In this document: positions 4,015 through 24,685 of the stretch, piece after piece | Numbering within the stretch: the first letter of the stretch is position 1 | How the letters are laid out: each line of letters begins with the position of its first letter | DNA from: an uncultured Geobacter sp. | GTDB lineage: Bacteria; Desulfobacterota; Desulfuromonadia; Geobacterales; CAIOGM01 | DNA: 64,000 bases | Direction of reading: 5' to 3' | Assembly: GCA_903902855.1 (NCBI GenBank) | Contig: CAIUWK010000095.1 | Location: forward strand, 5,887-69,886 | Notes under the pieces: generated by a model | What the model was told of the DNA's origin: nothing | Databases searched by the model: none | What the model saw: the letters and a program-made list of their open reading frames with translations, nothing else | Translations under genes and position numbers: made by a program

Positions 4015-4161
4015 TTTAATTTGCTCGCATCTAATCTACAGCCGACTGCGGCAGCTCCCCGCTGAAGTAAGAAACCATCCTTCTTGAGGGTACTTCACTA
4101 CGGCTTGCATCCCGGTGACTGATAAAAATGACGACGTTGTGCTCTTCTCGGGCATGAGCGA

Positions 4162-7590: not shown

Positions 7591-8364
7591 TTAATGTTTA
7601 GGTAGTATCGTAACGGTAACCGCACTCCCCACCGGCGGCACGGTGTCTTCCTTAACGAACCATATCTTGTCGCTCTCTCCACCGGCGGAGGCATTGTCAA
7701 TCAAAGCTATCGGATCGTGATAAAGTGCGATTATTGATCCTTCCATCTGCGCCAGGAACTTGCCGTTCCCGACAACGGAGCCCGTATAGATCCACGAGAG
7801 AGTGGATATCTCACACGTCTTTTTATCAATTTTTTTGCAGATCCAGCGTTCATAGTCGTCCGCAGCGGCCTTGCCGTCGGCGCCGACACGGGTGACAAGA
7901 ATCCTTACCGAGTCACCTTTGGGCGTAGAGGGGTCTCCCTGATAGGCAAGAGGCTTGTCGGTCCCTTCATACCCCAGGAGCAGAAAGGCTACCTGAAGCG
8001 GGTAGGGCTCCACGGTGGTGCGCAGGAGACTCTCATGGGTCTTTCCAGCGTTTCGTACCAGGAGATACTCCAGGAGTCCCTTCCCCATATTGACCACGGC
8101 AGGGAATGAAATCGATCGTTCCATTTTGTTGATCAGGATATCTCCTATCCGGAATACGCCCGGAGAGACCTTTTCTATTGCCGGTGGCTGTTGTGCCATG
8201 AATGGCGGTGGGGGGAGCAACGGGCGAGGTGGTGGCGCATTCTTCAAACCAGGTGGGAGTGGATTCTGTACCGCGGGAGGGGCTTCAGCCGTAGCGTTGG
8301 TTGCAACAACCGAGCAGGCGAGCATCAGATACAATCCGATTCGTGTGATACTGCTTCGCTTCAT
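7591..8364 (-). CDS. Secreted protein of unknown function with Pro-rich linker (copy A); possibly YdjY-domain-like (unverified recollection)
   Basis: The protein has a signal peptide, a PPPRPLLPPPPF linker and a conserved core (VSPGVFRIGD...LLEYLLV...GKTHESLLRT...IALYHDP...DKIWF). It is a paralogue of 19544-20323. Its stop is 18 nt before the downstream start. Confidence 0.6.
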   Translation of the reverse strand: MKRSSITRIGLYLMLACSVVATNATAEAPPAVQNPLPPGLKNAPPPRPLLPPPPFMAQQPPAIEKVSPGVFRIGDILINKMERSISFPAVVNMGKGLLEYLLVRNAGKTHESLLRTTVEPYPLQVAFLLLGYEGTDKPLAYQGDPSTPKGDSVRILVTRVGADGKAAADDYERWICKKIDKKTCEISTLSWIYTGSVVGNGKFLAQMEGSIIALYHDPIALIDNASAGGESDKIWFVKEDTVPPVGSAVTVTILPKH

Positions 8365-8456: not shown

Positions 8457-9032
8457 CTAGAACGAGTACGTATATACCAGCTCAAAACCGCACGTGCGAT
8501 CATCCACGAATTTCTCGAAGTACTTCACCCCGACTTCGTGCTGTTTACTGATCTTGTATGCTGCACCGAATTTCCAGGTATTTGTATTGTAATTGTTGTT
8601 ACGGTCAAAGGCGTCACGATGCCTCATGCTGACGTTCAGATCAAAGGTGTTGTCAACGACTGTCCAGACCAGTCCCGGTTCGATGGTGTAGTAGGGACAG
8701 TTCTTTTGTTGGGTAAATTTCTCGCCGATGCCCAAGCGGAGGGTCCCCTTGACCGGTCCGAACAGTTTCTGATCATAACGGACACGCGCTTCCAGCTTTG
8801 TTTCCATATCCTTGGTCAGGGAGTCCTGCTCTCCCTCAAACTTCAAGTCAACCTTGAAGCCGTTATCGAATTTATAGCCGGGGGCAATCGAAAAGGCATT
8901 TATCGAATCATGAGGCTGATTCTTGTTGTTCTCATACTCATACTCGAACGTCATAAACCCACCTGCTCCAAAGGCAGGCACACTGCTCAACAGACACAAG
9001 ACCGTAACTAAAATTTTTCCAAAATTCCTCAT
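8457..9032 (-). CDS. Small outer-membrane beta-barrel protein (present only in copy A)
   Basis: The start is at MRNFGK (9032) after an AAGGAGGA SD. The protein has a signal peptide, alternating amphipathic beta-strand pattern, and the C-terminal YTYSF with terminal Phe typical of OM barrels. Confidence 0.6.
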   Translation of the reverse strand: MRNFGKILVTVLCLLSSVPAFGAGGFMTFEYEYENNKNQPHDSINAFSIAPGYKFDNGFKVDLKFEGEQDSLTKDMETKLEARVRYDQKLFGPVKGTLRLGIGEKFTQQKNCPYYTIEPGLVWTVVDNTFDLNVSMRHRDAFDRNNNYNTNTWKFGAAYKISKQHEVGVKYFEKFVDDRTCGFELVYTYSF

Positions 9033-9135
9033 ACATTCCTCCTTTTCCACATATAGTTCGGATAGTTACCCTGTTATCGCTCCACCTTTTGGCCGATGAC
9101 TCCCTTTTATATTAATAAAAATTTTAATGTAGACA

Positions 9136-9165: not shown

Positions 9166-9262
9166 GCAGTTCTAATATGATATGGAGTGGGGGGGGTAAT
9201 TGATGGCGGAATATTATCAATCTGGAAATTGAACTTTCGTGTTCTTTAAAAAAGGCAAACAT

Positions 9263-9299
9263 AAAAGAACGGCGGGGCAATGAGCCCCGCCGTTCTTTT
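9263..9299 (-). terminator. Strong (bidirectional-looking) Rho-independent terminator after cassette B
   Basis: A 16-bp perfect stem, AAAAGAACGGCGGGGC (9263-9278) paired with GCCCCGCCGTTCTTTT (9284-9299), encloses a 5-nt loop. T-runs occur on both strands. It lies 30 nt downstream of the stop at 9329. Confidence 0.8.
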
Positions 9300-9328
9300 A
9301 TTGCGTTAAAAAATGCGAGTGACTGCTG

Positions 9329-11842
9329 CTACCTGATCGGGAAGTCTACGTATGACACATGAGTCCCGCCCGCGTCATCATATTCGAGTTTCCATCTGAT
9401 CTGTAAATCACTCACAGGATAGCGCCGGTCGATTTGGTATGAGAAGGTATCGATGGACGTCTTGACCGAAACGCTTGGTATGGAACCGAAGTTGACATTG
9501 CCGTCCACCACGCGGACCGGTGCCGGCCAGGACGACAGGGTTGATTTCACGTTATTTGCCGGAGCGTTCCCCCTGTTGCGCATATCGAATTTGTAGGTGT
9601 ATTCGTAGACGAACGTGCTAACTCGCCGTTCGCTAATTTTTACATAATGCTCGGGCCAGAGGTCTACTACGAAAACCTGAGCATTAGCCTGGGAAGTGGC
9701 GATAAGGCCGTCGTTGTCGGTAACCTTCAGGCCGATGACTCCTTGATACGGGGTCAACCAGGTTTTCTGGACTGTGGGGCTTGAGCCGCTGTTAGTTTCA
9801 TAGGTGCCATTCCCGTCAAGGTCCCACTCATACTTGACGATGGAGCTACCGAGGTTCGGCGAGTAGGAGGCAGAACCGTTGAAGGTAATCGGCGTTCCTA
9901 TCACGCCATTGTACGGACCGCCCGCATTAGCGACCGGCGGCACCTTGGTGGTGGTGATGGTGACCGGAATAATTGTTTCCGCAAATTCCTGAGGTGATGA
10001 GTTGTCGCTCACTCGGAGTTTTGCGTTGATCGTATAGTCTGCCGGAGGCGACTTTTCCGGATATCCGGTATAGACGATCGGGCCGGAAACCGGGAAGCTT
10101 CCGGTCAGATCATAGACGCCATCCCCGTCCACATCGATCCACCATTTGGAGAGAGACTTGGTGGGATCCTGATGGTAAGAGGCACGGATGTCGAAATTAA
10201 CCGGCGCAGGATGGAGCGCCGTGCTCGCCGGTGTGGGGTTGGGGGAGGCAGTCATTATGGCGACGGGGCGCAAGGTGAAGACGTTCCTGGTCAGGATCTC
10301 GACACTAAACGAGGTGTCAAGAACATACTGAGTGTAGCCCCAAGCGTACCATGAGCCATCAGCAGCCTGGTTGTCGATGAGCCAACTGCTGTATTCGTCG
10401 TACCAATCCCAGCCTGGAGCTGATCCCAGGAGTTGAATTTCCGAGTAGACGCCGCCAAGTTTAGCGATGCGGGCACCCTTCGTTATCGAATACATGTAGT
10501 ACGTATTACCGGTGCCGCGTTCGCCGGGTACGAGTCGGAGAAAGTTGCCTGCCCTTGTAATATTCGGATCATTTTTTTGTTTGCCCTGAAATGAAAGCTG
10601 GCATATCCCGGCTCCGGTCAAGGCGGCATAGCCGCCGGTCCCTGTACATGAAGGACAGGTGTAGCCAAAGAGGCCATCATAAACATCACCGGAAACATAT
10701 TGGCTGTAATTGGTCCAGTTGATGTTGTCGTTCTTGATTTTCGCCCGGATCGGGACTCCCCAGATGAACTCCGCAGCCTCCATGCCGATGGCGGGCCACT
10801 GGCAGGCGGAGTTATCCGGGAAATAGCCGGGGCCATACCGCCAACCACCATAATTGGGGTCGGTGTACTGGGCATAGTCGGCATAGTCGACCATGTCCCC
10901 GACGAGATCGCGGTAGGTTCTGCCGATCACACCGGCAGGCCCGGTGGTGGCAATCAGGTTAGGGGCACCTTCGGGGTTGGGCGTAATACCATCCGGTTTT
11001 AAGGCTGGAGCATTCTCACCCGCGCCGACCAAGGCAGTCATAAACATCCCTATTTTGTAGGGTGAACGGGAATCAGACCAGTACGGTGAGTAGCTGTCGA
11101 CAACCATGAGGCCGTTCGGCACAGCCGGATGATTGTCATAGGCAGGAGAGGTAACACTGACGGCTACGAGGTTTGAAATGGCGGCATCAAGCCCCTTGTG
11201 TACTGTCTCGGCATAGATGCGCCCTTTCTCCCAGATGGCCCGGTCGGCCGCATCAACGACGCCATCGCCGTTCAGATCCTTGGTGCAGGGCTTGTGACCC
11301 CGGTTTTCGAAGGCGAGGACTGCTGAAGCAGTCTCGGCGCCCCAGGAGTTGTAGCTGTTGACATAATAGATTTCGCCACCGGCGCCCTGCCGGAGATAGA
11401 GCCATTTCAGCCCTTTCTCGATGGCCAGTTCGATCCGGGCATCCTTGTCAACGACAGTTTTTACGTAAATATGGACCGTGGCGCTGTCCGAAAGACCGTT
11501 GCCGTCAGTCACGGTCAGGGTTGCATCGACGGGGCCCCCAGCCGAGTAGGTGTGATATGCAGAGATGTATTTGGCGTTGGTAACCGCTCCGGAGACCACG
11601 GGGGTCCCATCGCCAAAGTTCCAGATGTACGTACCTGACGCGGAGTCTCCCCACTTCACATTACCCCAGACGTCAAGCGAGTTCCCCACCCAGGTATAGG
11701 AACTCTGAACAGTGTTCCCGCTCGGCATGACATTTATGCTTGGACCGGTCAGCGCAAAAGCAGTCGAACTCCAGCCCATCATGCACAACATCCACAGGGC
11801 AAGAAGAGCCCTGATGCCCCAACTTTGTTTCCGGTAGTTCAT
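9329..11842 (-). CDS. Secreted multidomain PKD / alpha-alpha-toroid / PKD protein (copy B)
   Basis: This 837-aa ORF has an AAGGAGG SD and a signal peptide. It carries WNFGDGT and YEWDLDGNG PKD motifs and central toroid-like repeats (YGGWRYG, NQAADGSWY). It is collinear with 800-3241. Confidence 0.7.
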   Translation of the reverse strand: MNYRKQSWGIRALLALWMLCMMGWSSTAFALTGPSINVMPSGNTVQSSYTWVGNSLDVWGNVKWGDSASGTYIWNFGDGTPVVSGAVTNAKYISAYHTYSAGGPVDATLTVTDGNGLSDSATVHIYVKTVVDKDARIELAIEKGLKWLYLRQGAGGEIYYVNSYNSWGAETASAVLAFENRGHKPCTKDLNGDGVVDAADRAIWEKGRIYAETVHKGLDAAISNLVAVSVTSPAYDNHPAVPNGLMVVDSYSPYWSDSRSPYKIGMFMTALVGAGENAPALKPDGITPNPEGAPNLIATTGPAGVIGRTYRDLVGDMVDYADYAQYTDPNYGGWRYGPGYFPDNSACQWPAIGMEAAEFIWGVPIRAKIKNDNINWTNYSQYVSGDVYDGLFGYTCPSCTGTGGYAALTGAGICQLSFQGKQKNDPNITRAGNFLRLVPGERGTGNTYYMYSITKGARIAKLGGVYSEIQLLGSAPGWDWYDEYSSWLIDNQAADGSWYAWGYTQYVLDTSFSVEILTRNVFTLRPVAIMTASPNPTPASTALHPAPVNFDIRASYHQDPTKSLSKWWIDVDGDGVYDLTGSFPVSGPIVYTGYPEKSPPADYTINAKLRVSDNSSPQEFAETIIPVTITTTKVPPVANAGGPYNGVIGTPITFNGSASYSPNLGSSIVKYEWDLDGNGTYETNSGSSPTVQKTWLTPYQGVIGLKVTDNDGLIATSQANAQVFVVDLWPEHYVKISERRVSTFVYEYTYKFDMRNRGNAPANNVKSTLSSWPAPVRVVDGNVNFGSIPSVSVKTSIDTFSYQIDRRYPVSDLQIRWKLEYDDAGGTHVSYVDFPIR

Positions 11843-11925
11843 GGTGACCTCCTTATGGTATCTGATAATACGTGAGGCTAAAGAAAACCGACTAGACCCT
11901 CACGGTCTCCCGTTCGAGTTCGCTG

Positions 11926-12507
11926 TCAGCTTTTTTTCCTTTTTAAGAAGGCAAGGCCGGCGAGACCACCTCCCAGCAGCAGGATCGTGGAGGGCTCGGG
12001 AACGCCTGAAGGCTGCGAATATTGCGTGTACCCGCTGTCAAGGAGATTATACCCTCCCGCTTGGTCGAAGTTGCCCACAAGGTAGTAGAGATGATCTAAG
12101 GTTGCGCCTTGCTGCATGTCGAATGATACCGTAAAACCGCTGAGGCTGCTCCCGGGGGCAACGCCACTGCCGGCGGCATCGGAGTTAAAAATACCAGGAT
12201 TATCGATGGCGCTTGGCTGGAAGGAATAGGAAAACCACCCCACGGGACTGTTGACGCCCACATCGTCAGGAACAAAATTGGAAAATTCCGCGGTTTGCGT
12301 AAAGTTTAGACCGTCCACCGTCTGTCCGAAATAGACCGACAGCCACTGGATCGGATCCGCCAGGGTGTCATTCTCGATGGTGTAGTTGATCGTATACCCA
12401 GTCCCTGAGCCCGAAGGGTTTTGGTACTTCACTACTGTTGCCGATACTGTCGATACCATCCCCACAAGGAGACTACCTGCCAGCAATGCTAAGATTAATT
12501 TTTTCAT
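11926..12507 (-). CDS. PEP-CTERM sorting-domain protein (copy B)
   Basis: The C-terminus is VPEPSTILLLGGGLAGLAFLKRKKS. The start is at MKKLILALL (12507) after an AGGAGGTGAGAGG SD. A sigma-54 promoter lies upstream. Confidence 0.85.
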   Translation of the reverse strand: MKKLILALLAGSLLVGMVSTVSATVVKYQNPSGSGTGYTINYTIENDTLADPIQWLSVYFGQTVDGLNFTQTAEFSNFVPDDVGVNSPVGWFSYSFQPSAIDNPGIFNSDAAGSGVAPGSSLSGFTVSFDMQQGATLDHLYYLVGNFDQAGGYNLLDSGYTQYSQPSGVPEPSTILLLGGGLAGLAFLKRKKS

Positions 12508-12599
12508 CCTCTCACCTCCTAGTTGTGATCTTCGCACTCGCTTCGAAACGGCGGCGAGTATCCATTAATGCCTAAATTTTACTGATAGCGAAACGTAAA

Positions 12600-12615
12600 T
12601 GCAATACATATGCCA
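12600..12615 (-). promoter_or_regulatory. Sigma-54 (-24/-12) promoter of PEP-CTERM gene B
   Basis: The minus-strand read is TGGCAT-atgta-TTGCA, a near-perfect match to TGGCAC-N5-TTGCW. It sits about 93 nt upstream of the start at 12507. Confidence 0.65.
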
Positions 12616-12774
12616 GTTAATGCGCTTGAGTCGGCAGAAGGATCAATAACAATAAACCAATACCCGACCTCTCCCAACACAAGTAAAAAGGCGTTCTACA
12701 AAGAGAAAAGGTGTATCCGTATCCGGAGTATCAGAGGAGTAAACTTACAGGCAACTTTCCGGCGGCACTGGCGT

Positions 12775-12824
12775 GTGTCGGCTTTCTTTACACCTTACGG
12801 TGACTAGTGTCGGATTTCTTTACA
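12775..12824 (-). promoter_or_regulatory. Tandem direct-repeat candidate enhancer (UAS), copy B
   Basis: GTGTCGGCTTTCTTTACA (12775-12792) and GTGTCGGATTTCTTTACA (12807-12824) match at 17 of 18 positions and are 32 bp apart. They lie about 160-210 bp upstream of the sigma-54 element. Confidence 0.45.
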
Positions 12825-12909
12825 GTAGCGTTCACATGCAGAGGAGAAGAAGGAGGAGATGCTGTGGTAACAGTCGGCAGGGTACGGAGACCACCGTGGA
12901 GGAACGCGC

Positions 12910-13638
12910 TCAATCTCCCCGGACAAAGCGCTGACCAGCCAGGGTCAGAACGGCACCGCCGATCCCGGCCGCCAACCAGACGGGAGAGATCAGAGCGGCC
13001 ATGACGACGCCGTCCAGCAGAGAGATCCCGGCCAGAAGTATCGGCACCAGAGGCACCGCGTAGGGCTTGCTCCTCCTGTTTTCATGCCGCGCCACCGCGC
13101 TGATCAGGAGGACATAGCCGAACTGGAGGCATCCGGCGAGTATGACGGAGCTGCCGACCGTTCCGGATACCGCCACCGCCACGACCACGAAGACGGTCAT
13201 CCGGCAGCCGGCCATGAGCAGGATACTGAAATATCGGGACTGATGCAGGGTATCATAGGCGATGATGAGCAGGAGCAGTATCACGCCCGCCAGGAGCGCC
13301 AAGGGGTGAGGAACAACGACAAGTAGGGAGAGGGCCGTCGAAAACAGCACAATTGTAAAAACCCGGGCACCACGGGTCGACACCCGCCCTGAAGGGATAG
13401 GGCGTGAGGGACGCTTCAACCGGTCGACTCCGGCGTCGCAAAGGTCATTGAAGCACATTCCACCGGAGTAGAAGAGCGACAGCGAGAGCGCAAGGACAAC
13501 ATAGTGCCGCCAGGAAAATCCTCCCCCGGCAAGAAGGAGCGCCGCAAGGACGTTGGTCCAGACCGTCGGGAGGTTGCTGACCCGACAGAGCTCCAGGTAT
13601 GACTTGATGAGGGTGCGGGGCACTTGGTTCACTCGCAA
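12910..13638 (-). CDS. eboC: UbiA-family prenyltransferase, EboC-type
   Basis: The protein is polytopic and hydrophobic, with UbiA motifs (LELCRVSNLPTVWTNVL, NDLCDAGVDRLKRPSRPIPSGR). The start is TTG at 13638 or GTG at 13632, overlapping the eboF stop. Confidence 0.75.
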   Translation of the reverse strand: MRVNQVPRTLIKSYLELCRVSNLPTVWTNVLAALLLAGGGFSWRHYVVLALSLSLFYSGGMCFNDLCDAGVDRLKRPSRPIPSGRVSTRGARVFTIVLFSTALSLLVVVPHPLALLAGVILLLLIIAYDTLHQSRYFSILLMAGCRMTVFVVVAVAVSGTVGSSVILAGCLQFGYVLLISAVARHENRRSKPYAVPLVPILLAGISLLDGVVMAALISPVWLAAGIGGAVLTLAGQRFVRGD

Positions 13639-14996
13639 AAGATATGCTTCAGCAGCAGGTCACGAACCTGCTCTGCCTCGATGAGGGGAGCTTCAAGGAG
13701 TTCCGGTTCGGTGGTCATGAAAAGCGGCCCCTCGTCGGCTCGATCGGTGACCCGTCCGTGAGACCCCTTGACGAGGGAGGCGTCCAAGGGAATCACCTCC
13801 ATGAGGTAGCGAAAGCCGAGGGCTTTTTTCAGCAGGGTCCAGGCGATCTTCGCCTTGGGCGCCGGAAGCTTCGGATCCAGAAATAGTTCACAGGGATCGT
13901 ACCCCGGTTTGGCGTGGATGTTGACAGTACGGGCGTAATCCGGCGCCCGCGAGTCGTCGTTCCAGAAGTAGTAGGTAAACCAGCTCTCCCCACCGGCAAT
14001 GAGCAGCAGTTCCCCGCTTCGCTCATGGTCGAGACCGTACCTGCGCTTCCCCTCCGCGCCCAGTACCTGTTCTACTCCCGGCACTCCGGAAAAAAGATGT
14101 TGCACCGCCGGAATATCGTTTCGATTTTTCACATAGATGTGGGCGATCTGGTGGTCGGCCACGGCAAAGGCACGGCTGGTTCCAGGGTCCAGGTATTCCC
14201 GCCCCAGATCGACCTTGAGGCTAAGGAATCCGGCATCGCGCAGAATCCTGTTCGGATGGAGCGGGCGCGAAACCGGGGTAATGCCGTATTCGGAGAGGAC
14301 GATGACCCGACAACCGCGATTCCGGAAAAAGTCGATGAGTTTGCCGCAAAGGGTGTCGATCTCACTCAGGTCGCGGTCAAGATCCCCCTCCGGCCCGACC
14401 TTCTGGAGGATGTAATCCAGATGGGGAAGGTAGACAAGCTGGAGGGTTGGTTGATGCTCCTCCTCTATGGCCATGGCCGCCTTACCGATCCAGTCGCTGG
14501 CGGTGATGGAGGTGGCCGGTCCCCAGAACTGGAAGAGCGGAAACTGCCCGAACTCCCGGTTGAACCTCTCCCTCAGTTCCGGAGGGATACTGTAGCAGTC
14601 CGGCAGTTTCTTCCCGTCAGCGCAATAGAGCGGGCGGGGAGTCACCGCCCACTCCAGATCCGTTACCATGTTGTACCACCAGAAGGAGTTGGCGCAGGTA
14701 AACGCTGCGTCCCGCTGCCGCGCACTCTGCCAGATTTTTTCCGACTGGACGAGCCGGTTTGACTGGCGCCAGAACATGACCTCACCCAGATCCCGGAAAT
14801 ACCAGCCGTTACCGACGATGCCATGTTCCCTCGGCAGCTTGCCGGTGAGATAGGTCGTCTGCATGGTGCAGGTCACGGCCGGCGTGATGGCCCTGATATC
14901 GGCGCTCCCCTCAATAAGTTTATTCAGGTTGGGGGTCTTGGCGCCGAGGAGTGAGCGGGTCAGCCCCACCACGTTAAGGACAACAGTTCGTTTCAT
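13629..14996 (-). CDS. eboF: Alkaline-phosphatase-superfamily nucleotide pyrophosphatase/phosphodiesterase, EboF-type
   Basis: This 455-aa protein begins MKRTVVLNVVGLT...ITPAVTCTMQTTYLTGKLPREHGIVGNGW, the type I phosphodiesterase N-terminal catalytic-Thr region. Its start overlaps the eboE stop by 4 nt. Confidence 0.7.
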   Translation of the reverse strand: MKRTVVLNVVGLTRSLLGAKTPNLNKLIEGSADIRAITPAVTCTMQTTYLTGKLPREHGIVGNGWYFRDLGEVMFWRQSNRLVQSEKIWQSARQRDAAFTCANSFWWYNMVTDLEWAVTPRPLYCADGKKLPDCYSIPPELRERFNREFGQFPLFQFWGPATSITASDWIGKAAMAIEEEHQPTLQLVYLPHLDYILQKVGPEGDLDRDLSEIDTLCGKLIDFFRNRGCRVIVLSEYGITPVSRPLHPNRILRDAGFLSLKVDLGREYLDPGTSRAFAVADHQIAHIYVKNRNDIPAVQHLFSGVPGVEQVLGAEGKRRYGLDHERSGELLLIAGGESWFTYYFWNDDSRAPDYARTVNIHAKPGYDPCELFLDPKLPAPKAKIAWTLLKKALGFRYLMEVIPLDASLVKGSHGRVTDRADEGPLFMTTEPELLEAPLIEAEQVRDLLLKHIFCE

Positions 14997-16081
14997 CCCT
15001 TATGTCCTTTCAGCCACAGAAGCTCCCTGACAATTGACTGGTCAACGGTCTCCGCACGAAGTTCCGGCGGGAGGACATCCCAGGTGTAGGTCTCGACTTC
15101 CAGCAGCACCGTATCGTCCACGTGGGGGATCAAGGTGTCGATGAAGCAGCGGGTTGTCCCGTACTGCGGCATCTGTTCCACGAAGATGGGGAGGTGAAAG
15201 TGAACCCGCCACTCGTCGCCTTGGGCAGCGGGATGGAGCCGGAGGGCCGCAGGGAGATCATCATACCGTCGGATCATCCCCTCCCGGTCACGGATGACTG
15301 TCTGGTGCAGGTAGACCGGCTCACAGAACCGTTCCAGCAAGGTCCGGTCGGGATCGAGCATCCGGAGTGCGGAGGATATCTGAATCTTCCCCACCGGGAT
15401 ATCCGCGTCGGCAAGATGTTCCAGGCACGCTGCCGGCTCCTCGAACTCCACCGCCTGATGACAGCAGTCCAGGCAGATCCCCAGCATCGTCCGGAGAGAA
15501 TCGGGAAACGCCATCCGTTCGAAGAACCATACGACCTCTTCGGTTGTTTCCAGCAGACATCCCGGCTCCGGTTCCAGAGAGAGGATGATACTCTTGCCGC
15601 TCCTCTGCCGCAGGCAGTCGAGATGCTCCAGGGTTCTAAGGAGATTGCTCCTGACAACCGCCAGCTCCTCCTTCGGAAGAGTTTTTCCGAAACAGACCGG
15701 CACGGTGGATACAGACCCCTGCAGCCCAACCGGAAGCCACCGGTCCAAGAGCGTCACCAGCCGGGTGGTATATTCAACCCGCTCCGGCTGGCGCCAGTCG
15801 GGAAGATAAACCAGCTCTTTTACCCGTGCGCTATGGAATGATCCATAGGGAAAGCCGTTGATGGTCGGCACGAAGAGTTCGTGCCGCTGGAGCCACTCCA
15901 GAAAGCGACTCTCGGCAACTTGGTCCAATTCCATGGCGGCGCGCCGGGAGAGCCGTAGGCCCACCGGGAATGGTTCGACGGAGGAAAACTCGGATTTGAT
16001 GGCAGGCAGGTGACGGCGCAGGGTGCTGAAGGTTTCTTCCCAGCTTTCACCCGGGTGGATGTTGGTGCAGTAGGTGATCAC
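14993..16081 (-). CDS. eboE: Xylose-isomerase-like TIM-barrel protein, EboE-type
   Basis: The start is taken at the GTG at 16081, overlapping the eboB stop as GTGA. The protein begins VITYCTNIHPGESWEETF...INGFPYGSFH...VPVCFG. The upstream 72 codons of track ORF 14993-16297 overlap eboB and are Arg-rich noise. Confidence 0.7.
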   Translation of the reverse strand: MITYCTNIHPGESWEETFSTLRRHLPAIKSEFSSVEPFPVGLRLSRRAAMELDQVAESRFLEWLQRHELFVPTINGFPYGSFHSARVKELVYLPDWRQPERVEYTTRLVTLLDRWLPVGLQGSVSTVPVCFGKTLPKEELAVVRSNLLRTLEHLDCLRQRSGKSIILSLEPEPGCLLETTEEVVWFFERMAFPDSLRTMLGICLDCCHQAVEFEEPAACLEHLADADIPVGKIQISSALRMLDPDRTLLERFCEPVYLHQTVIRDREGMIRRYDDLPAALRLHPAAQGDEWRVHFHLPIFVEQMPQYGTTRCFIDTLIPHVDDTVLLEVETYTWDVLPPELRAETVDQSIVRELLWLKGHKG

Positions 16082-16881
16082 GCGGCGTGAAATTTGGGGG
16101 ACTGCCCAAGAAACGCCGCAGGATTGCCATGGAATACCTTCCGGATCAACTCTTCGGGGTGCCGGCGCATCCGCATTTCGTTGGCGGCCTTGACGGTTGC
16201 CAGGGGATCGCTGATCCCCCAGTCGGCGGCGGAGTTGAGCCAGATCATCTCGATTCCGTACCGCTCGAGGATGTCCACGGCCCTGGCGGGACTGCATTTG
16301 GAATTCGGATAGAGAGTCAGCCCGGCCCAGAAACCCCGGTCCTTGATCTCTCCGATGGTATGCTCTTCGGCGTGATCGATGATGACCCGTTCCGGTCGGA
16401 TCCGTGGTTCGTTCCGGATGGCGTCCATGATGAGGCGGGTCCCCTTGAGCTTGTCTTCAAGATGGGGAGTATGCACCAGGATCAGCTCATCCCGCTCTGC
16501 GGCCAGCGCAATCTGCAGCTCCAGTACCGTGACTTCATTCCTGCTGTTCTTGTTCAGGCCGATCTCCCCGACCCCCAGCGCCGTGGGGCGATCCAGGAAC
16601 TCCGGCATCACCGCCAGGACATCCCGTGCCAACGCAAGATCTTCGGCCTCCTTGGGGTTCAGGCAGATCCAGCAGTAATGCCGGATGCCGAACTTCGCGG
16701 CCCTGCCGGGCTCGGCAACGGTAAGCTGGTTGAAATAATCGCGAAACCCCTCTGCGGTTCCCCGGTCGAAGCCGGCCCAGAAGGCCGGCTCGGTCACGGC
16801 GTGGATGCCGGCCAAGGCCAGGGCCTGGTAGTCGTCGGTGGTCCTGGAGACCATGTGGATATGAGGGTCAATGATCTTCAC
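16078..16881 (-). CDS. eboB: TatD-family metal-dependent hydrolase, EboB-type
   Basis: MKIIDPHIHMVSRT carries the HxH metal motif, and GVGEIGLNKN...VLELQIALAAERDELILVHTPH...IIDHAEE is the TatD/amidohydrolase pattern. Confidence 0.75.
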   Translation of the reverse strand: MKIIDPHIHMVSRTTDDYQALALAGIHAVTEPAFWAGFDRGTAEGFRDYFNQLTVAEPGRAAKFGIRHYCWICLNPKEAEDLALARDVLAVMPEFLDRPTALGVGEIGLNKNSRNEVTVLELQIALAAERDELILVHTPHLEDKLKGTRLIMDAIRNEPRIRPERVIIDHAEEHTIGEIKDRGFWAGLTLYPNSKCSPARAVDILERYGIEMIWLNSAADWGISDPLATVKAANEMRMRRHPEELIRKVFHGNPAAFLGQSPKFHAA

Positions 16882-17182
16882 GAGTCACCTCCTGCCATGC
16901 TCCCACCGCGCTTTTCATCCCGGCGGAGCTTGGTATCGGCTCCGTGGTCGGGTCGCTCAAGCGATGGAGGATAGCTCCGGTCCGATTTCCGGATGGTGCC
17001 AGGAGACAACCGACAGCGTGCAGCACTGCCTGATAACGGAAATCTTTCCGTGCTTCGGCAGCATCATCGGCCCGCTCGATCCGGTCAAGAAACGCGGCGA
17101 TTTCGAGGATTCTCGCTCGATTCTCAAGAAACGTGCTTTCGAGGATCTCCTGTGCGGATAACGGACTTTTCAGAATGCTCAT
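16868..17182 (-). CDS. eboA: Small conserved protein in the eboA position (putative EboA)
   Basis: This 104-aa ORF is wedged between eboD and eboB, with a 59-nt overlap with eboD and a 14-nt overlap with eboB. Its N-terminus is conserved in the copy-A relic. The family assignment rests on position only. Confidence 0.45.
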   Translation of the reverse strand: MSILKSPLSAQEILESTFLENRARILEIAAFLDRIERADDAAEARKDFRYQAVLHAVGCLLAPSGNRTGAILHRLSDPTTEPIPSSAGMKSAVGAWQEVTREDH

Positions 17183-18335
17183 GGCGATCTCCAGCTCTGG
17201 TCACCCTGTCTGCCAGGGTTGAAATACACTCCTGATACAGCTTGACGTCAATCTCATGCGCCTCTTTTTTGTCTCCGATACCCGACAAAAGCGGGATAGA
17301 GAGCACTCCTCCCAGATGTTCCCGAAATTCCCGAAGTGCCTTGTCCACATCGATCCACCGGAGGACCGTGTCGTAGAGAGTGAAGCCCACGTCTTCAAGG
17401 AGGGTCAGAATCCGGTGAAGGTCGAGGTCCCCGATCCCGGACCGGCGGTGGGAGTAGAGCGCGTCGAGGGCAATCCCAATGGCCACGGCTTCGCCATGCC
17501 TGATATCACCATGGGTCAATTCTTCCAGTTTATGGGCCGTCCAGTGACCGAAGTCCAGCGGCCGGGACGTCCCGAATTCGAACGGGTCACCGCAGGTACG
17601 GATATGTTCCAGGTGCAGTTCGGCACAACGGATGATCATCCGTTCTATTGCCGGTGGGGAAAAAATCGCCAGTTCCCTGCGATCCAGATACAGGCGGTCA
17701 AAGAAGGGCCGATCCTTGATCAGCGCTACCTTGATCGCCTCGGCAATACCTCCCCGCCGGTCGCGATCCGAAAGTGTCTGCAGAAAATCGAAATCGTTAA
17801 TCACCGCACACGGCGGGGCAAAGGTCCCCAGAAAATTTTTCCGTCCGAACGCGTTGACGCCGTTTTTTACACCAACACCCGCGTCGTTTTGCGCCAGAGT
17901 GGTGGTCGGCAGCCGTATCAGGCGAATGCCGCGATGGGCCGTGGCGGCAGCATAGCCGGCGACATCCAGCAGAGCCCCGCCGCCGAGAGCGATGATGTAG
18001 GAATGGCGGCAAAGCCCTTCCTTTTCTATCAGGGAATGGATTCGCTCGACTTCCCGGGGCTGATTCTTGCACCCTTCACCCCCCGGCAGAATCAGGGGTG
18101 GAGTGACGAATTCCAGAAGACCCTGGTGCCGGACGGCAAACAGTTTTATTTTTTCCAGGAGTCCGGTCGTGAGTCGTGCCACTTCGGAATCAATGACCAG
18201 GGCAATTCTGGCGCGCGCATCGCCGGAGGAGGAGAAGAACTCCGGCAGTACCTGGTTTTCTCCGCCAAACAGGTCACGGGTGAAGATCACCGGATATGAA
18301 TAGGAGAGAGTGAATTCCTGTCGTAGGGAGTACAT
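17124..18335 (-). CDS. eboD: 3-dehydroquinate-synthase-family sugar-phosphate cyclase, EboD-type (copy B)
   Basis: This 403-aa protein has the same DHQS-family motifs as 5174-6391. It is the first gene of the tightly coupled ebo block. Confidence 0.8.
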   Translation of the reverse strand: MYSLRQEFTLSYSYPVIFTRDLFGGENQVLPEFFSSSGDARARIALVIDSEVARLTTGLLEKIKLFAVRHQGLLEFVTPPLILPGGEGCKNQPREVERIHSLIEKEGLCRHSYIIALGGGALLDVAGYAAATAHRGIRLIRLPTTTLAQNDAGVGVKNGVNAFGRKNFLGTFAPPCAVINDFDFLQTLSDRDRRGGIAEAIKVALIKDRPFFDRLYLDRRELAIFSPPAIERMIIRCAELHLEHIRTCGDPFEFGTSRPLDFGHWTAHKLEELTHGDIRHGEAVAIGIALDALYSHRRSGIGDLDLHRILTLLEDVGFTLYDTVLRWIDVDKALREFREHLGGVLSIPLLSGIGDKKEAHEIDVKLYQECISTLADRVTRAGDRHEHSEKSVIRTGDPRKHVS

Positions 18336-18344
18336 GTCAGCCGC

Positions 18345-19526
18345 CTATAATCCCCGGGAGATAATCTCCAGGGTAATGACCGCATAAGAAGAGACGAGGA
18401 CCGGATCTTTTTCCCACCAGCGACCGTTGGCATTGACCCAGGAGCCGTCGCTGTTTTGCAGGGCGAGCAGCTTCTTCGCCAGATCCTTGCGCCAATTGAC
18501 GCTTTTCCCCTCCTTGAGGGTCAGGTTGTCCACCCCGTAGATGCTGAGCGCCTTGGCCATGGTGTGGTAGTAGTAGTAGAGACCGTCTTTCCCCATGCCA
18601 GGATTTTCGTCGAGAGTATAGTGCCGGCTCAGCCAGTCGTAGACCGCCTTGACCCGGGGGTCGTTCCTGTCGAGTTGGGCGTAGATGTAACTCAGCAGCC
18701 CGGCATAGCTCATGCTGCCGTAGGATCTGAGGGCCGCCTTGCCATCGGGAAGCTTAACCTCGCCCGCCTTGCTATCCTCCGGAAAATAGACGAAGCCCCC
18801 CTTGTTGTCCGGGTCATCACTGGCCCACTTCTGGTCATTGGATCCGGGGAGGTTCTGGGTCCGGGAGATGAACTGGATCGCGGCCTTCCAGTTGAGATCC
18901 TTCGTCTCGGCGTCACCGGCAACATCACTCTTCAGATAGCGGCTGTAATGGAGCGCTTCCAGAGCGAAGGTCGTATTGGCCAGGTCCGAATGCTTGTAGG
19001 TGCCGCCGTAACCGATACCGCCATCCAGCGGGTCGTCTCCCATCCCTTTTTCGCCGTAATCGTCCTGCAGGCCGATGATGAATTTTCGGGCATTCTTGAT
19101 GACCGGCTGGTATTCCGGCCGGTTGGCAACCAGAAGGGCCATCATTGAGATCGAGGTGTTATAGTTGGTCAGATCCTTCCCGTAAATGCCACCGTCAGGC
19201 TTCACGCATTTCAGGAGGTAGTCGTACCCTTTGGCGGTAGCTTGCTCATATTTCCGTTTAGAGAAACCCGACTGGTCCCCCTGGAACCCGGTCAGCGCCA
19301 AGGCGGTCATGGCTGGATATTCCTGCTGGCCCCAGTAGCCTTCCGGTTTCTGCTTCGTCGCCAGCCAGGTCAACCCCTTGCCGATGGCGTTCTCCACTTC
19401 AAGCTTCAGAGAAACATCAGATCCGGATTTGGCCACCACTTTATCAGCCCCAACAGCAGGCATTACCATGATTGCTGCCATGAAAAAAACGGCTGCCATC
19501 CTTCCGCCCAGGGTGTGCATCTTCAT
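18345..19526 (-). CDS. Secreted prenyltransferase/squalene-cyclase-repeat (alpha/alpha toroid) protein (copy B)
   Basis: The start is at MKMHTLGG (19526) after a GAAGGAGAA SD. It has a signal peptide and the same toroid repeats as copy A. Its stop is 9 nt before the eboD start. Confidence 0.7.
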   Translation of the reverse strand: MKMHTLGGRMAAVFFMAAIMVMPAVGADKVVAKSGSDVSLKLEVENAIGKGLTWLATKQKPEGYWGQQEYPAMTALALTGFQGDQSGFSKRKYEQATAKGYDYLLKCVKPDGGIYGKDLTNYNTSISMMALLVANRPEYQPVIKNARKFIIGLQDDYGEKGMGDDPLDGGIGYGGTYKHSDLANTTFALEALHYSRYLKSDVAGDAETKDLNWKAAIQFISRTQNLPGSNDQKWASDDPDNKGGFVYFPEDSKAGEVKLPDGKAALRSYGSMSYAGLLSYIYAQLDRNDPRVKAVYDWLSRHYTLDENPGMGKDGLYYYYHTMAKALSIYGVDNLTLKEGKSVNWRKDLAKKLLALQNSDGSWVNANGRWWEKDPVLVSSYAVITLEIISRGL

Positions 19527-19543
19527 AGGTTCTCCTTCTCGAT

Positions 19544-20323
19544 TCACTTTTTACGTTGTATCGTTACGGTTACCGGCGTTCCGACAGGTGGTACGGCGCC
19601 TTCCCTGACGAACCAGATCTTGTCGCTGTCGCCCCCCTTGGAGGCGTTATCGACAAGAGCGGCAGGGTCATGGTAGAGGGCAATGATGGAGCCTCCCATT
19701 TGGGCAATGAACCGGCCGTCCATAACCACAGAACCTGTATAGACCCAATCCAACGTTGAAATAGTTACCCGCTTGTTGTCAATCAGTTTACACATCCAGC
19801 CGGTGTAATCTACCGGCGCCGGTTTTCCGGAGGGATCGGTAAGAGACACAGTTATTGTCACCGCATCCCCCGTTGGTGTCCGGGGATCACCCTGCCCGGC
19901 AAGAGGTTGGTTGGTCCCCTCGTATCCCAGCAGGAGGAAGGCGACTTGAAGTTGGTACGGGTCGACCTTCGTCCTCAGGAGGCTTTCGTGGGTTTTTCCC
20001 CCCAAACGAACCAGCAGATACTCCAGGAGACCACGGTCCATATTCACCTCAGCGGGAAATGTGACCGAGAGTTCTTTCTTGTTGATCTGTACATCGCCGA
20101 TGCGAAATATTCCGGGAGAAACCTTCTCAATTACCGGTGTCTCCTTGGCGGCCATTGGTGGGAGAGGCGGGGGAGGCGGGGGGGAGGGAGGCGGGGGGAA
20201 CGACAATTTGCTCCTCACCGGAGCAGGGTCGAGCGGTTCCAGGGCCGCCGCGTATCCGGTCATCAACAACAACGAAAGTACTGCCATGATCATCCTGCTT
20301 CCGGTACGGCTGTACTTACGCAT
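19544..20323 (-). CDS. Secreted Pro-rich protein of unknown function (copy B)
   Basis: It has a signal peptide, a PPPPSPPPPPPLPP linker and the conserved core shared with 7591-8364. Confidence 0.6.
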   Translation of the reverse strand: MRKYSRTGSRMIMAVLSLLLMTGYAAALEPLDPAPVRSKLSFPPPPSPPPPPPLPPMAAKETPVIEKVSPGIFRIGDVQINKKELSVTFPAEVNMDRGLLEYLLVRLGGKTHESLLRTKVDPYQLQVAFLLLGYEGTNQPLAGQGDPRTPTGDAVTITVSLTDPSGKPAPVDYTGWMCKLIDNKRVTISTLDWVYTGSVVMDGRFIAQMGGSIIALYHDPAALVDNASKGGDSDKIWFVREGAVPPVGTPVTVTIQRKK

Positions 20324-20424: not shown

Positions 20425-21885
20425 TTAATATTGATCGGACATTTTTTCCGTACCCGTCGGTATGGTTTCAAGGCGGCAGTGCAACTCCTTGAGCATCCGG
20501 CAGATCGTTTCCCTCTCTTCTCTGCCGATTATGCCCCCACCATACCGGACACGGTCACACTCTTCGAAGAGAGTCTCTACCAGATTGATCGCCAGGTCAC
20601 TGCTCCCCTCCGGGCGGAGGTGCGTGTCGACGATTCCCGCTGTGATGGCCTGGGGTGGGATTTGATAATGAACACCGAGTGACTGCTGCAACGCCCGGAA
20701 TACCGTTGTGGGAGAGCCCCCGGATTCGACTTCTGCCAGTACAGTCTCAAGATTCAGTTCGACCTCCCCTTCCCGAAAAACTACCGGGTTTATGGTTTCG
20801 GGCAGCGCTGTCGCCTCTCTTCTTCGGTAGTACCCCAGCGAGCCCCCTGCCAGCGCCAGGAGCAGGATCCCGGAGACAACCGGCAGGTACCGGCGATGGA
20901 GGCTGACCGGTGCGACGTCGGCCCGAACGGTCCCCGGGTGTGACGTGGAGTGCGCCGGATACGCGAGAGTCACCGGAGGTCTGGGAGGTGGTATGGTATC
21001 GGTGATTGTTACCGGGAATGGCCCCTGCCGCACGGTCCGGTAGGAACCTTGCATGGAATCAAAATAGCTGAAGAACACTGGTGGGACTTGCCGGATGTGA
21101 CCAATCGGCGTCAGAACCTGCTCGCAGACAGTCGTTCCCTTCAGTCGCCGCGCCTGGGGCGGATACGTGCTGAAACCGACGTTCGCCGCCATCGCCGGGC
21201 AGGTAACCGTGTCCATCGTTCCATCTCCGGAAATAGTGCTCGTAACGGTGACCGGATTCCCGCTCATCACGGTGCGAGGCGTTACCGTCACCGCAAGCCG
21301 AAAATCGCCGACAGCTCCCCTGAAATCCGCCGGTTTCCCCTTCAGAGGAAAGGGGGCAATGGCAACGGTAACCCCTTCAGCCTTCAGCTCCCGGCGCTCA
21401 GGGACGGCATCCCCGAAGAAGCTCGGGGAACCGGTTGCGGCAGGGAGCAGCAGCGAACAGGCAAGGGTGACCGGCCCCAGATTGAATTCGCCGGCCTTTT
21501 TTCCGGAAACGATATACCTGAACTCCATCGTCGTCCAGGAACGGCCGTTCCTCACTTCCGAGCCCAGGGAGGGGGGAGCGGCTTCACGGAGCGTGAGGCC
21601 GGGATGGAGCATCGTGGGATACTGGATATCCCGGATGGTCAGCTCTGTTGCGTACCCCAGCCTGACGATCACGGGGATCGTTTCTCCCGGATAGGCCACT
21701 CTCTTCTCCGCTGAGAGGGTGAATGAGAGCAGAGCGGGCAGGTCAGGGGAGACATCAGCCGGCGGTATGCTGCTCTCCGGAGTCGCCGTTCCCCCGGCCT
21801 GAGCTGTCTGGCCCGCGATCAGGAGGAGAGCGGTGACGACGGCACCGGCACTCCAGCGGAGCAGGAATCGTCTGATCCTGGTCAT
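20425..21885 (-). CDS. batD: BatD-like protein (aerotolerance-operon family)
   Basis: This 486-aa protein has a signal peptide, a large extracytoplasmic domain and a late TM segment (VVSGILLLALAGGSLGYYRRRE). It is the last gene of the moxR-DUF58-batABC operon. Confidence 0.6.
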   Translation of the reverse strand: MTRIRRFLLRWSAGAVVTALLLIAGQTAQAGGTATPESSIPPADVSPDLPALLSFTLSAEKRVAYPGETIPVIVRLGYATELTIRDIQYPTMLHPGLTLREAAPPSLGSEVRNGRSWTTMEFRYIVSGKKAGEFNLGPVTLACSLLLPAATGSPSFFGDAVPERRELKAEGVTVAIAPFPLKGKPADFRGAVGDFRLAVTVTPRTVMSGNPVTVTSTISGDGTMDTVTCPAMAANVGFSTYPPQARRLKGTTVCEQVLTPIGHIRQVPPVFFSYFDSMQGSYRTVRQGPFPVTITDTIPPPRPPVTLAYPAHSTSHPGTVRADVAPVSLHRRYLPVVSGILLLALAGGSLGYYRRREATALPETINPVVFREGEVELNLETVLAEVESGGSPTTVFRALQQSLGVHYQIPPQAITAGIVDTHLRPEGSSDLAINLVETLFEECDRVRYGGGIIGREERETICRMLKELHCRLETIPTGTEKMSDQY

Positions 21886-22662
21886 CTACCACTCCTTGAG
21901 AACTACGGCGGGGTGACCCGGACGGCGCGCATCACGGAACAGAGTGGTCGCCCCGCCTGGTTGCGGCTGTTCCCGCAGGAGCGCCTCCGCTTCCGGGCGG
22001 GATATCCTGAGTTGTTTCTGGCTCTTGGTCCCCTTCTCTCCTGCTTCTGCCGCTGATCTGCCATGGGCCTGATCACCGGATGAGGCGCGCCCCATCTCTG
22101 AAGTGTCACGTTCCCCTGGGACGACTTTCCTCCGTTTCTCCCCCCCCTCTGACTCCCCTTCTTTCCGGTGATCGCTGCCGGTGCCCGACTTCTGTTCGTT
22201 ATGAGCGGCTTGTACTCTCTGAAGCCGGTTACGGGCAACGGCACGGTTGAACTGCGCATCAAGGTCAGCCCCGTCAAGGCGCAGCACCTGCTCATACTCG
22301 CCAATGGCCTGGCGATAAAACTCTGCGGCGCCTCCCTGATCACCGGCAGCCGGCTCATCCCCCAGCCGGAAGAGGGCATTGCCGAGATTGTACTGTGCGG
22401 CAGCCGTTATACCAGGGGCTTTTGCTCGGATCGCCCGGGAAAACTCCGCAGCCGCCCTGCGGTATTCCCGTTGCCGGTAGAGCGTCACCCCGCTGTTGAA
22501 CGCAAGCCCCGCCGAACCGGGAAAGAGGTTCGCGAGCCGCGGCCAGATTCCCCCCTGACCGTATGACTCCGTAGCCCTGACAACGGGCCAAAAGATGAAG
22601 GCCACGCCGAAGAGGAACAGGAGGCAGAAGAGAAAAAAAGGGGGAAACCATCGTCGCCTCAT
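21886..22662 (-). CDS. batC: BatC-like TPR protein
   Basis: The start is at MRRRWFPPFF (22662), overlapping the batB stop as ATGA. It has an N-terminal TM segment, TPR-like repeats (AAEFSRAI...AQYNLGNALFRLGD...YRQAIGEYEQVLRLD) and a charged tail. Confidence 0.6.
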   Translation of the reverse strand: MRRRWFPPFFLFCLLFLFGVAFIFWPVVRATESYGQGGIWPRLANLFPGSAGLAFNSGVTLYRQREYRRAAAEFSRAIRAKAPGITAAAQYNLGNALFRLGDEPAAGDQGGAAEFYRQAIGEYEQVLRLDGADLDAQFNRAVARNRLQRVQAAHNEQKSGTGSDHRKEGESEGGEKRRKVVPGERDTSEMGRASSGDQAHGRSAAEAGEKGTKSQKQLRISRPEAEALLREQPQPGGATTLFRDARRPGHPAVVLKEW

Positions 22663-23642: not shown

Positions 23643-23643
23643 C

Positions 23644-24648: not shown

Positions 24649-24685
24649 GAAAATCTCGGTTCATGGTTCGTGGAGGCGCCCACAG

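Follow-up and report, generated by a model that had tools for sequence, protein, structure and literature searches.

The ebo gene cluster occurs in thousands of genomes, and a May 2026 preprint ties it to thallusin and saccharoquinoline, which are farnesylated quinolines (10.64898/2026.05.21.724671). A stretch of 64,000 nucleotides (nt) from an uncultured Geobacter sp. (contig CAIUWK010000095.1, positions 5,887 to 69,886; the whole stretch is called the window) carries a conserved variant of this system. The organism is an uncultured relative of the Geobacteraceae that recurs in several environmental metagenomes. The new part of the locus is an undescribed module of exported accessory proteins, namely a YdjY-domain protein, a small toroid protein, a PEP-CTERM protein and a PKD-toroid-PKD protein, and the mechanism of this module is inferred.

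In the described pathway, EboD cyclises mannose-6-phosphate to a C6 cyclitol, and condensation with aspartate gives hydroxyquinaldate. EboC, which resides in the inner membrane, farnesylates hydroxyquinaldate towards meroterpenoids of the saccharoquinoline and thallusin type. The preprint evidence consists of a correlation between producers and non-producers, aspartate labelling, farnesylation of trihydroxyquinaldate by EboC, and the finding that deletion mutants of eboB, eboC, eboE and eboF no longer contain thallusin (10.64898/2026.05.21.724671). The same work found no dedicated terpene cyclase, no oxidative ring-opening enzyme and no export or handling components. Desulfobacterota are listed among the ebo carriers, and YdjY, squalene-cyclase-like genes and Geobacter are unmentioned (10.64898/2026.05.21.724671). 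A preliminary description of the window, made from the sequence alone, regarded the product and mechanism of ebo as poorly defined and proposed a prenylated cyclitol lipid as the product. The first statement is outdated by the preprint, which points to a farnesylated quinoline instead of the second. In Nostoc, a hydrophobic aromatic intermediate depends on ebo to reach the periplasm. The late steps there need the periplasmic PEP-CTERM proteins ScyE and ScyF and the exosortase CrtB (PMC12188702).

The main ebo array of the window (copy A) consists of eight tightly packed open reading frames (ORFs) at 20323-12910, all on the minus strand. In order from 5' to 3', these encode the exported YdjY-domain protein of 259 amino acids (aa; 19544-20323), the secreted monodomain alpha/alpha toroid of 393 aa (18345-19526, ATG at 19526), the DHQS-like sugar-phosphate cyclase EboD (17124-18335), a small protein of 104 aa that is placed in the eboA slot by position only (16868-17182), the TatD-like hydrolase EboB (16078-16881), the xylose-isomerase-like TIM barrel EboE (14993-16081), EboF of the type I phosphodiesterase/nucleotide pyrophosphatase family (13629-14996), and EboC, a short-form UbiA-like prenyltransferase of 242 aa (12910-13638). 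The spacings in transcription order are +17, +9, -59, -14, -4, -4 and -10 nt. The close-packed upstream pair of the preliminary description is therefore present as placed, with 17 nt between the ydjY-like and toroid genes and 9 nt between the toroid gene and eboD. The overlaps given there (59, 14, 4, 4 and 10 nt) are right when eboE starts at GTG 16081. This start agrees with the onset of the NF035939 match, at residue 74 of the longest ORF.

Of the six ORFs at 12910-18335 that had been called an ebo cluster, four are supported as ebo genes by profile or by identity, and a fifth is probably eboC. EboE has 422.3 bits with the TIM_EboE equivalog NF035939 (cut-off 250) and covers the whole profile. 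EboD has 540 bits with PRK06203 (cut-off 333), contains the Pfam DHQ_synthase and DHQS_C domains and shares 47% identity with the eboD product of the eboABCDEF operon in Croceivirga. EboF has 190 bits with PF01663 (Phosphodiest) and is 50% identical to its Croceivirga counterpart. EboB falls at 26.6 bits with Pfam TatD_DNase (cut-off 27) and is 42% identical over 98% of its length to the canonical Croceivirga eboB; across the EboB proteins of other ebo clusters, identity ranges from 42 to 86%, again over about 98% of the length. EboC matches Pfam UbiA above its cut-off with 78.5 bits. Its top NCBIfam match is the EboC model NF035940, with 96.7 bits (cut-off 250) over profile positions 1-199 of 292. 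This low score is due to the absence of an internal segment of about 60 residues that is present in the 290-330-aa forms; in the alignment, the NDxxDxxxD motif and the C-terminus are kept. The short EboC (about 240 aa) is common to all Geobacter-type loci, and the position of the window eboC within the cluster supports its orthology with EboC. A truncated or frameshifted EboC is rejected, as the C-terminus ...RGD is common to both window copies and to all Geobacter-type loci.

The cluster had been called complete, in the order eboD-A-B-E-F-C. Profile matches and sequence identities uphold the ebo identity of the D, B, E and F genes and make that of the C gene probable, and an eboA is not supported. 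EboA proper is a PF28008-type protein of about 240-280 aa. The EboA proteins of two related loci (L039 and L007) match each other at 1e-26 in BLASTP, and the 104-aa protein has no BLASTP similarity to either of them. It has no Pfam or NCBIfam match, with PF28008 possibly outside the Pfam set searched. From these comparisons, the 104-aa protein is classed as a separate small-protein family that occupies the eboA slot, and the "small protein" wording of the preliminary description is accurate. This family is kept in Geobacter-type, Nitrospirae and one Verrucomicrobia ebo cluster.

The 259-aa protein at the start of the array is Pro-rich and exported, as had been described. Its YdjY domain had been overlooked (NF040466, PF27149; 136.6 bits, cut-off 50, profile positions 1-179 of 181). 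The AlphaFold2 model has a mean predicted local distance difference test score (pLDDT) of 78 and consists of an N-terminal hydrophobic helix, a Pro-rich linker and a beta-rich YdjY domain. No match was found in the PDB by sequence or by fold, and no characterisation of the YdjY family was found in the literature searched.

The 393-aa protein matches Pfam SQHop_cyclase_C with 33.4 bits (cut-off 26.1). Its AlphaFold2 model is helical throughout, with a predicted template modelling score of 0.72 and a pLDDT of 69.7, and is weak over residues 155-271. The best Foldseek matches in the PDB are all (alpha/alpha)6 barrels, with template modelling (TM) scores of about 0.5-0.6. AprG of the apramycin pathway, MstE and monodomain proteins like squalene-hopene cyclase (SHC) match at E 1e-5 to 1e-4. 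Other matches are the drimenyl diphosphate synthase SsDMS, the thioester domains of complement and alpha2-macroglobulin, and the (alpha/alpha)6 glycoside hydrolases GH9, GH76 and GH105. The prenyltransferase/squalene-cyclase-type toroid of the preliminary description is thus confirmed as a predicted fold by both the Pfam match and the Foldseek barrels; the fold matches do not settle its function.

The association of these genes with ebo was surveyed in loci recovered via close toroid, YdjY or PKD homologues with usable flank, and separately in loci recovered via eboD (30 loci, GTDB species representatives). All 12 of the 12 accessory-recovered loci with usable flank carry ebo genes (L001, L002, L033-L036, L038-L041, L043 and L050). 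In Geobacter pelophilus (L001), ebo lies beside the accessory genes. Geobacter sp. OR-1 (L002) has only eboD, the small protein gene and eboB of the ebo set. Linkage to ebo is also found in two Desulfuromonadaceae metagenome-assembled genomes (MAGs; L034 and L035), two Nitrospirae MAGs (L040 and L041) and four metagenome contigs (L033, L036, L043 and L050). An unclassified MAG (L038) has the shuffled ebo order B-C-F-D-E. In the L039 contig, inositol-1-phosphate synthase (Ino1) replaces eboD and is directly upstream of two toroid genes. YdjY adjoins the toroid in every close related locus. Among the 30 eboD-anchored loci, YdjY and the small toroid occur only in L003, an uncultured Geobacteraceae MAG with the same layout as the window, and the PKD-toroid occurs only in L003 and L006. 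The latter is a Nitrospirae MAG in which two PEP-CTERM/PKD-toroid pairs are directly upstream of eboD, the small protein gene, eboB and eboE.

The ebo core genes are present in only about 3.5% of genomes (4,405 of 124,295; preprint 10.64898/2026.05.21.724671), and the adjacency of accessory and ebo genes is therefore far from chance. The preliminary description would have been undermined by neighbours that co-occur with ebo no more often than expected at random; across the recovered loci, the linkage is far beyond that. The gene set recurs as a unit in the Geobacterales/Desulfuromonadales, the Nitrospirae and unclassified lineages. It is a lineage-restricted, multi-lineage add-on to ebo that may also exist alone.

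Distant relatives of the PKD-toroid protein (25-33% identity) frequently have a YdjY or small toroid gene beside them and adjoin O-methyltransferases, Ino1, sigma-54 two-component systems, TonB and TonB-dependent receptors. In the metagenome scan with the PKD alignment, about half of the matches are to the generic PKD domain only. Small toroid or YdjY genes lie beside TonB-dependent receptors or TonB in L061 (9610-12839), L068 (2591-4553 and 13964-16717) and L064 (6110-9169). The toroid domain is also found inside giant surface proteins (2,700-3,600 aa) of distant relatives. In two Geobacter-type loci, L002 (13839-21170) and L036 (16581-21167), the ebo/toroid genes are flanked by giant PKD-rich proteins that exceed 3,000 aa and also carry FG-GAP, PA14 and He_PIG domains; in L002, the giant gene occupies the place of eboE, eboF and eboC. 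A natural-product-type O-methyltransferase (Dimerisation and Methyltransf_2 domains) is next to YdjY in L034 (8240-9235), L039 (1209-2213) and L046 (11393-12535), which differ in their other genes. Its recurrence hints at O-methylation of an ebo-related aromatic product in some lineages.

Downstream of the main array, a 402-nt intergenic region separates eboC from the PEP-CTERM gene (11926-12507, minus strand; about 193 aa from ATG 12507). Its PEP-CTERM domain, predicted earlier, is recognised by TIGR02595 (30.8 bits, cut-off 16) and by PF07589 (29.2 bits). The domain follows a signal peptide, and the protein carries the motif VPEPSTILLLGGGLAGLAFLKRKKS. The next gene encodes the secreted 837-aa protein (9329-11842, minus strand). 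The PKD-toroid-PKD architecture proposed for it is borne out by a PKD_4 match at residues 66-125, a K319L-like PKD match at residues 650-723, and homology of residues 128-518 to the small toroid (hhalign probability 98.5%, E 3e-15, 309 columns). In L033, L038 and L039, the PKD-toroid gene likewise follows a PEP-CTERM gene homologous to that of the window, and a PEP-CTERM gene is called or detected at the same position in L001, L002, L006, L037, L040 and L041.

The PEP-CTERM gene is preceded by a sigma-54-type promoter of the form GG-N10-GC, TGGCATatgtaTTGCA (12600-12615, minus strand). The GG-N10-GC motif alone is not above chance in the window (2 found, 3.1 expected), and its significance lies in where it is placed. 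Some 180 nt farther upstream is a pair of direct repeats, TGTAAAGAAnnnCGACA, 32 nt apart (12776-12824, minus strand), which form a candidate enhancer for a sigma-54 activator. The window contains four exact copies of TGTAAAGAAnnnCGACA, compared with 0.19 expected with up to two mismatches, and these copies form pairs before both PEP-CTERM genes, that of copy A and that of a second copy described below. The repeat recurs in L003 (two copies) and in L001 (one copy). Sigma-54 response regulators and kinases adjoin the PKD genes in L033 and L039; no sigma-54 activator was found in the window. A strong intrinsic terminator with an 18-bp stem and a T run (9261-9301, minus strand) ends the PEP-CTERM/PKD unit. 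Given the promoter, the repeats and the neighbouring sigma-54 regulators of related loci, the PEP-CTERM/PKD pair is probably a sigma-54-dependent transcription unit apart from the ebo operon. The sigma-54 promoter of the preliminary description is retained as a candidate (12615-12600), and the joining of the module to the ebo cluster is replaced by a unit of its own outside the operon. A weak hairpin with a T-rich tail (11894-11908, minus strand) lies between the PEP-CTERM and PKD-toroid genes and may cause their products to be expressed at unequal levels.

A tandem duplication of the entire module had been overlooked. A diverged copy (copy B) is at 8364-800 on the minus strand, with five genes intact. 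These encode YdjY' (7591-8364; 70% amino acid identity to copy A), toroid' (6395-7573; 85%), EboD' (5174-6391; 81%), PEP-CTERM' (3325-3909; 62%), in which the PEP-CTERM domain is again recognised, and the 831-aa PKD-toroid-PKD' (800-3295; 66%). The eboA-slot gene, eboB and eboC are decayed to peptide-matching fragments in different frames (4200-5137), which appear as three short blastn blocks with 76-83% identity. The eboE and eboF genes are deleted. The copy B regulatory region (3999-4211) contains repeats at 4163-4211 and the promoter CGGCACatatgTTGCA at 3999-4014. Between the copies, nucleotide identity is 78% over the 3 kb of YdjY-toroid-eboD and 68-78% overall. The ratio of nonsynonymous to synonymous substitution rates (dN/dS) is 0.07-0.13 for YdjY', toroid' and eboD', 0.18 for PEP-CTERM' and 0.15 for PKD', and dS is at least 0.67 in all five intact pairs. 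It follows that the duplication is old and that purifying selection maintains each of the two sets. A recent duplicate or an assembly artefact is rejected on the same values and on the nucleotide identity. Selection has kept the exported proteins and the cyclitol synthase and has let the remaining ebo enzymes decay.

A 197-aa protein resembling an outer-membrane beta-barrel is encoded between the two copies (8457-9050, minus strand). It has weak Porin_4 and OMP_b-brl matches, ends in YTYSF and has its own sigma-70-like promoter at 9165-9138. It is rejected as a conserved part of the module, as similar-sized proteins at this position elsewhere are PEP-CTERM or unrelated proteins.

The toroids differ from class II terpene cyclases at the catalytic site. 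In a phmmer alignment of the L039 toroid with SHC, the PDVDDT of SHC pairs with PDLSNT. The window toroid aligns with the L039 toroid (36% identity, E 2e-64) and has HSDLANT in the same columns. Its DLAN is at D374-V-D376-D377 of SHC, where Asp181 corresponds to D374, and D376 and D377 are replaced by Ala and Asn. The window toroid does not contain the DxDD/DxD general-acid motif. The equivalent site in the 837-aa PKD protein is PDNSA. The family consensus is RxDLSNT over 633 clusters at 50% identity (E<=1e-30), and sequence comparison thus defines a large family of putatively secreted SHC-like barrels without the catalytic acid (>600 such clusters). The toroid as a canonical class II cyclase is rejected by this alignment, in which the proton donor D376 is replaced. 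The "terpene-cyclase-fold" of the preliminary description holds for the fold. Because the catalytic Asp is missing, processing by cyclisation is less likely than binding.

A role of the small toroid in the periplasm as a non-canonical monodomain terpene cyclase or other late tailoring enzyme, which would cyclise the EboC-installed farnesyl group to the drimane ring, is unlikely. The drimane-ring step is without an assigned enzyme in the thallusin pathway, and the preprint, finding no dedicated cyclase, could only suggest that EboC does both steps. However, no toroid lies near ebo in the loci recovered from Bacteroidota, Verrucomicrobiota and Planctomycetota, three phyla for which thallusin production has been confirmed or inferred. 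The Pfam SQHop_cyclase_C match and the Foldseek matches to drimenyl diphosphate synthase and to MstE, a class II enzyme with a prenylated dihydroxybenzoate substrate, are as expected for a cyclase; the proton donor is nevertheless absent (D-L-A-N in the window, D-L-S-N in the consensus, D-N-S-A in the PKD protein), and MstE still uses DxD (PMC12414744). Known class II cyclases are cytoplasmic or membrane-associated, whereas the toroid carries a signal peptide. Its strong conservation, about 70% identity across the clade, would suit an enzyme, but at least three paralogous toroid domains per locus, some inside large surface proteins, would be unusual for a cyclase. The missing acid, the signal peptide, the several paralogues per locus and the absence from the recovered ebo loci of these three phyla together favour a role for the toroids as binding or hand-over modules in the periplasm and at the surface, rather than as cyclases.

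The preferred reading, with chances judged to be slightly below even, is that the locus is an extended ebo locus in which exported accessory proteins act on the ebo product, or on a cargo that depends on it, after the inner-membrane step. Both toroids have lost the proton-donating Asp and are therefore proposed as the binding or hand-over modules. They would take the product or cargo from the outer face of the inner membrane and carry it across the periplasm to the surface of the cell. There, an exosortase-sorted PEP-CTERM protein and its PKD-toroid partner may hold or present it. YdjY would be a conserved partner, and its Pro-rich linker would suit a periplasm-spanning protein. Copy B may supply extra or variant exported components and an extra cyclitol synthase, and would depend on copy A for the remaining enzymes. 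The homology between the small toroid and the toroid of the PKD protein, and their fold matches to prenyl-ligand-binding barrels such as MstE and SHC, are consistent with this reading. It also agrees with a linkage that survives reordering of ebo (L038), the Ino1 swap (L039) and a change of phylum (L006, L040 and L041).

Several observations weigh against the extended-locus reading. The toroid model is only moderately confident and is low over the stretch noted above, and Foldseek does not separate terpenoid-binding from sugar-active barrels. Polar or aromatic residues (Asn, Gln, Asp, Arg, Tyr and Trp) predominate among the conserved positions of the toroid, which fits a cyclitol or sugar as well as a prenyl chain. 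A cyclitol synthase (eboD or Ino1) is a more constant neighbour than any other gene, the prenyltransferase included; copy B, L002, L006, L039 and L040 lack eboC. In 26 of the 30 eboD-anchored loci, all from other phyla, there are no accessory genes within 10 kb (Verrucomicrobiota, Bacteroidota, Polyangia, Planctomycetota and others), so the module is not needed for ebo function generally. Some distant relatives of the PKD-toroid/YdjY module have no ebo genes in the available flank. No exosortase (EpsH/Xrt) is present among the scanned ORFs of the window. The link between ebo and thallusin comes from a preprint and from aerobic producers (10.64898/2026.05.21.724671), and organisms of the window type are probably anaerobes.

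Uptake is a further explanation, and a quite improbable one. The toroid, YdjY and PKD-toroid proteins would form an envelope module that captures or takes up a secreted, metal-chelating ebo product, with the PKD-toroid as the surface capture protein, and would thus amount to a metallophore receptor with a shuttle. Thallusin does chelate metals (10.64898/2026.05.21.724671), but production of a chelator in these organisms is without support. The layout of YdjY is TonB-like, with an N-terminal helix, a Pro-rich spacer and a C-terminal domain, and distant small toroid, YdjY or PKD-toroid genes lie beside TonB-dependent receptors (L061 and L068) or a TonB protein (L064). These relatives, however, have only 25-47% identity and come from loci without ebo genes, and neither the window nor the close Geobacter and Nitrospirae loci contain a TonB-dependent receptor or ABC importer. 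The small outer-membrane barrel gene between the window copies would fit uptake, but it is not conserved in other loci.

The least probable explanation is that the exported genes form an independent exosortase, exopolysaccharide or cell-surface system with polysaccharide-active barrels that is merely syntenic with ebo: PEP-CTERM proteins are generally tied to exopolysaccharide systems (PMC1569441), GH9, GH76 and GH105 barrels are among the fold matches, the PEP-CTERM/PKD pair carries a sigma-54-type promoter and a terminator separate from those of ebo, and distant family members occur without ebo, but the ydjY-like and small toroid genes are in eboD's own array with gaps of 9-17 nt, the linkage persists through ebo reshuffling, the Ino1 swap and the change of phylum, neither the window module nor most related loci contain a glycosyltransferase or polysaccharide-export gene, and the decayed copy B has kept eboD with the exported genes under selection.

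A more specific form of the extended-locus reading is possible and on balance doubtful. YdjY, the small toroid, the PKD-toroid and the PEP-CTERM protein may together be a hitherto unrecognised machinery outside the cytoplasm that is devoted to the ebo metabolite. In anaerobic bacteria that cycle metals, it could be a relay and receptor, from the periplasm to the surface, for a metal-binding meroterpenoid similar to thallusin; alternatively, it could be an exported system with non-canonical cyclase or tailoring activity. Such a machinery would fill in the extracytoplasmic part that the ebo pathway lacks, and it would make the Nostoc transport phenotype compatible with the biosynthetic role in thallusin producers. 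The locus suggests that an ebo-derived meroterpenoid is both made and handled by anaerobes that cycle metals. The exported set tied to ebo in Geobacter-like and Nitrospirae genomes provides concrete candidates for the steps outside the cytoplasm.

The window has further features around the module. A complete Bat/MoxR-type operon (20425-27217, minus strand), also passed over earlier, ends 101 nt upstream of the ydjY-like gene. It encodes a MoxR AAA ATPase, DUF58, a 207-aa protein, BatA, a VWA protein, a TPR protein and a BatD-like protein. The adjacency is repeated in L001, L002, L003 and L034/L035 and is divergent in L036. The operon is absent next to the module in L033, L038, L039 and the Nitrospirae loci, and the adjacency is found in the Geobacterales only. 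A 694-aa secreted protein (33814-35898, minus strand) has a BamB-like PQQ beta-propeller with DUF11 and CARDB domains, and small redoxin-family genes are nearby (33208-33726 and 28857-29429). A 1,285-aa methyl-accepting chemotaxis protein (55451-59308, minus strand) contains eight HAMP_2 repeats (713 bits), and this unusually long poly-HAMP array is between the 4HB_MCP sensor and the signalling domain. On the plus strand, a TPR and GT41 (O-GlcNAc-transferase-like) sequence at 59564-61500 appears divided into two ORFs (59564-60556 and 60553-61500) with a 4-nt overlap, which are either two coupled genes or one frameshifted gene.

Among known systems, canonical eboABCDEF (Yurchenko et al. 2016, PMC5133447) is similar to the window in that EboD, EboB, EboE, EboF and EboC homologues are present and translationally coupled. 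The window EboB, EboC, EboD, EboE and EboF are 35-50% identical to their Croceivirga lutea counterparts. Unlike the canonical operon, the window has the order D-a-B-E-F-C, with an unrelated 104-aa protein in the eboA slot and a 242-aa short form of EboC that falls below the NCBIfam cut-off. It also has two exported genes at the 5' end and a PEP-CTERM/PKD-toroid unit after the array, and the module is duplicated. The ebo papers searched contain no mention of the extra genes, the short EboC or the duplication, and the preliminary description's view that the combination is undescribed agrees with the ebo literature searched.

The toroid resembles the SHC beta domain (PDB 1GSZ / 2SQC) by sequence homology through QW-type repeats and the GG[FW]...D..T..AL motif. 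SHC has two domains, whereas the toroid has one, with a degenerate DxDD, export and conserved residues that are mostly polar. In the merosterolic acid (mst) pathway, the prenyl group is installed by a UbiA-type transferase, as the farnesyl group is by EboC here. Like the toroid, MstE of that pathway (PDB 6SBB) has one (alpha/alpha)6 barrel, about 350-390 aa long, and in both systems a prenylated aromatic acid accompanies the barrel. It is described as a monodomain class II cyclase of prenylated dihydroxybenzoate (Moosmann et al. 2020, as cited in PMC12414744). Foldseek matches the toroid to MstE at E 1e-4 with TM 0.46-0.55, and sequence similarity between the two is undetectable. Unlike the ebo-linked toroid, which has a signal peptide and a single Asp at the site, MstE is cytoplasmic and keeps the DxD proton donor (PMC12414744).

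The coupling of ebo to an exosortase pathway, as envisaged in the preliminary description, has a precedent in the scy/ebo/cyanoexosortase B system of Nostoc punctiforme (PMC6282210, PMC12188702), with unrelated proteins; the hand-over of a lipid to the toroids remains a proposal. In Nostoc, the partners are ScyD, ScyE and ScyF from the scytonemin locus next to ebo, whereas the window contains no scy genes and has YdjY and toroid proteins as the partners. As in the window, ebo in Nostoc is tied to exported PEP-CTERM proteins, and there the target of the exported proteins is a hydrophobic aromatic metabolite, met in the periplasm or on the surface, and an exosortase is needed (PMC6282210, PMC12188702).

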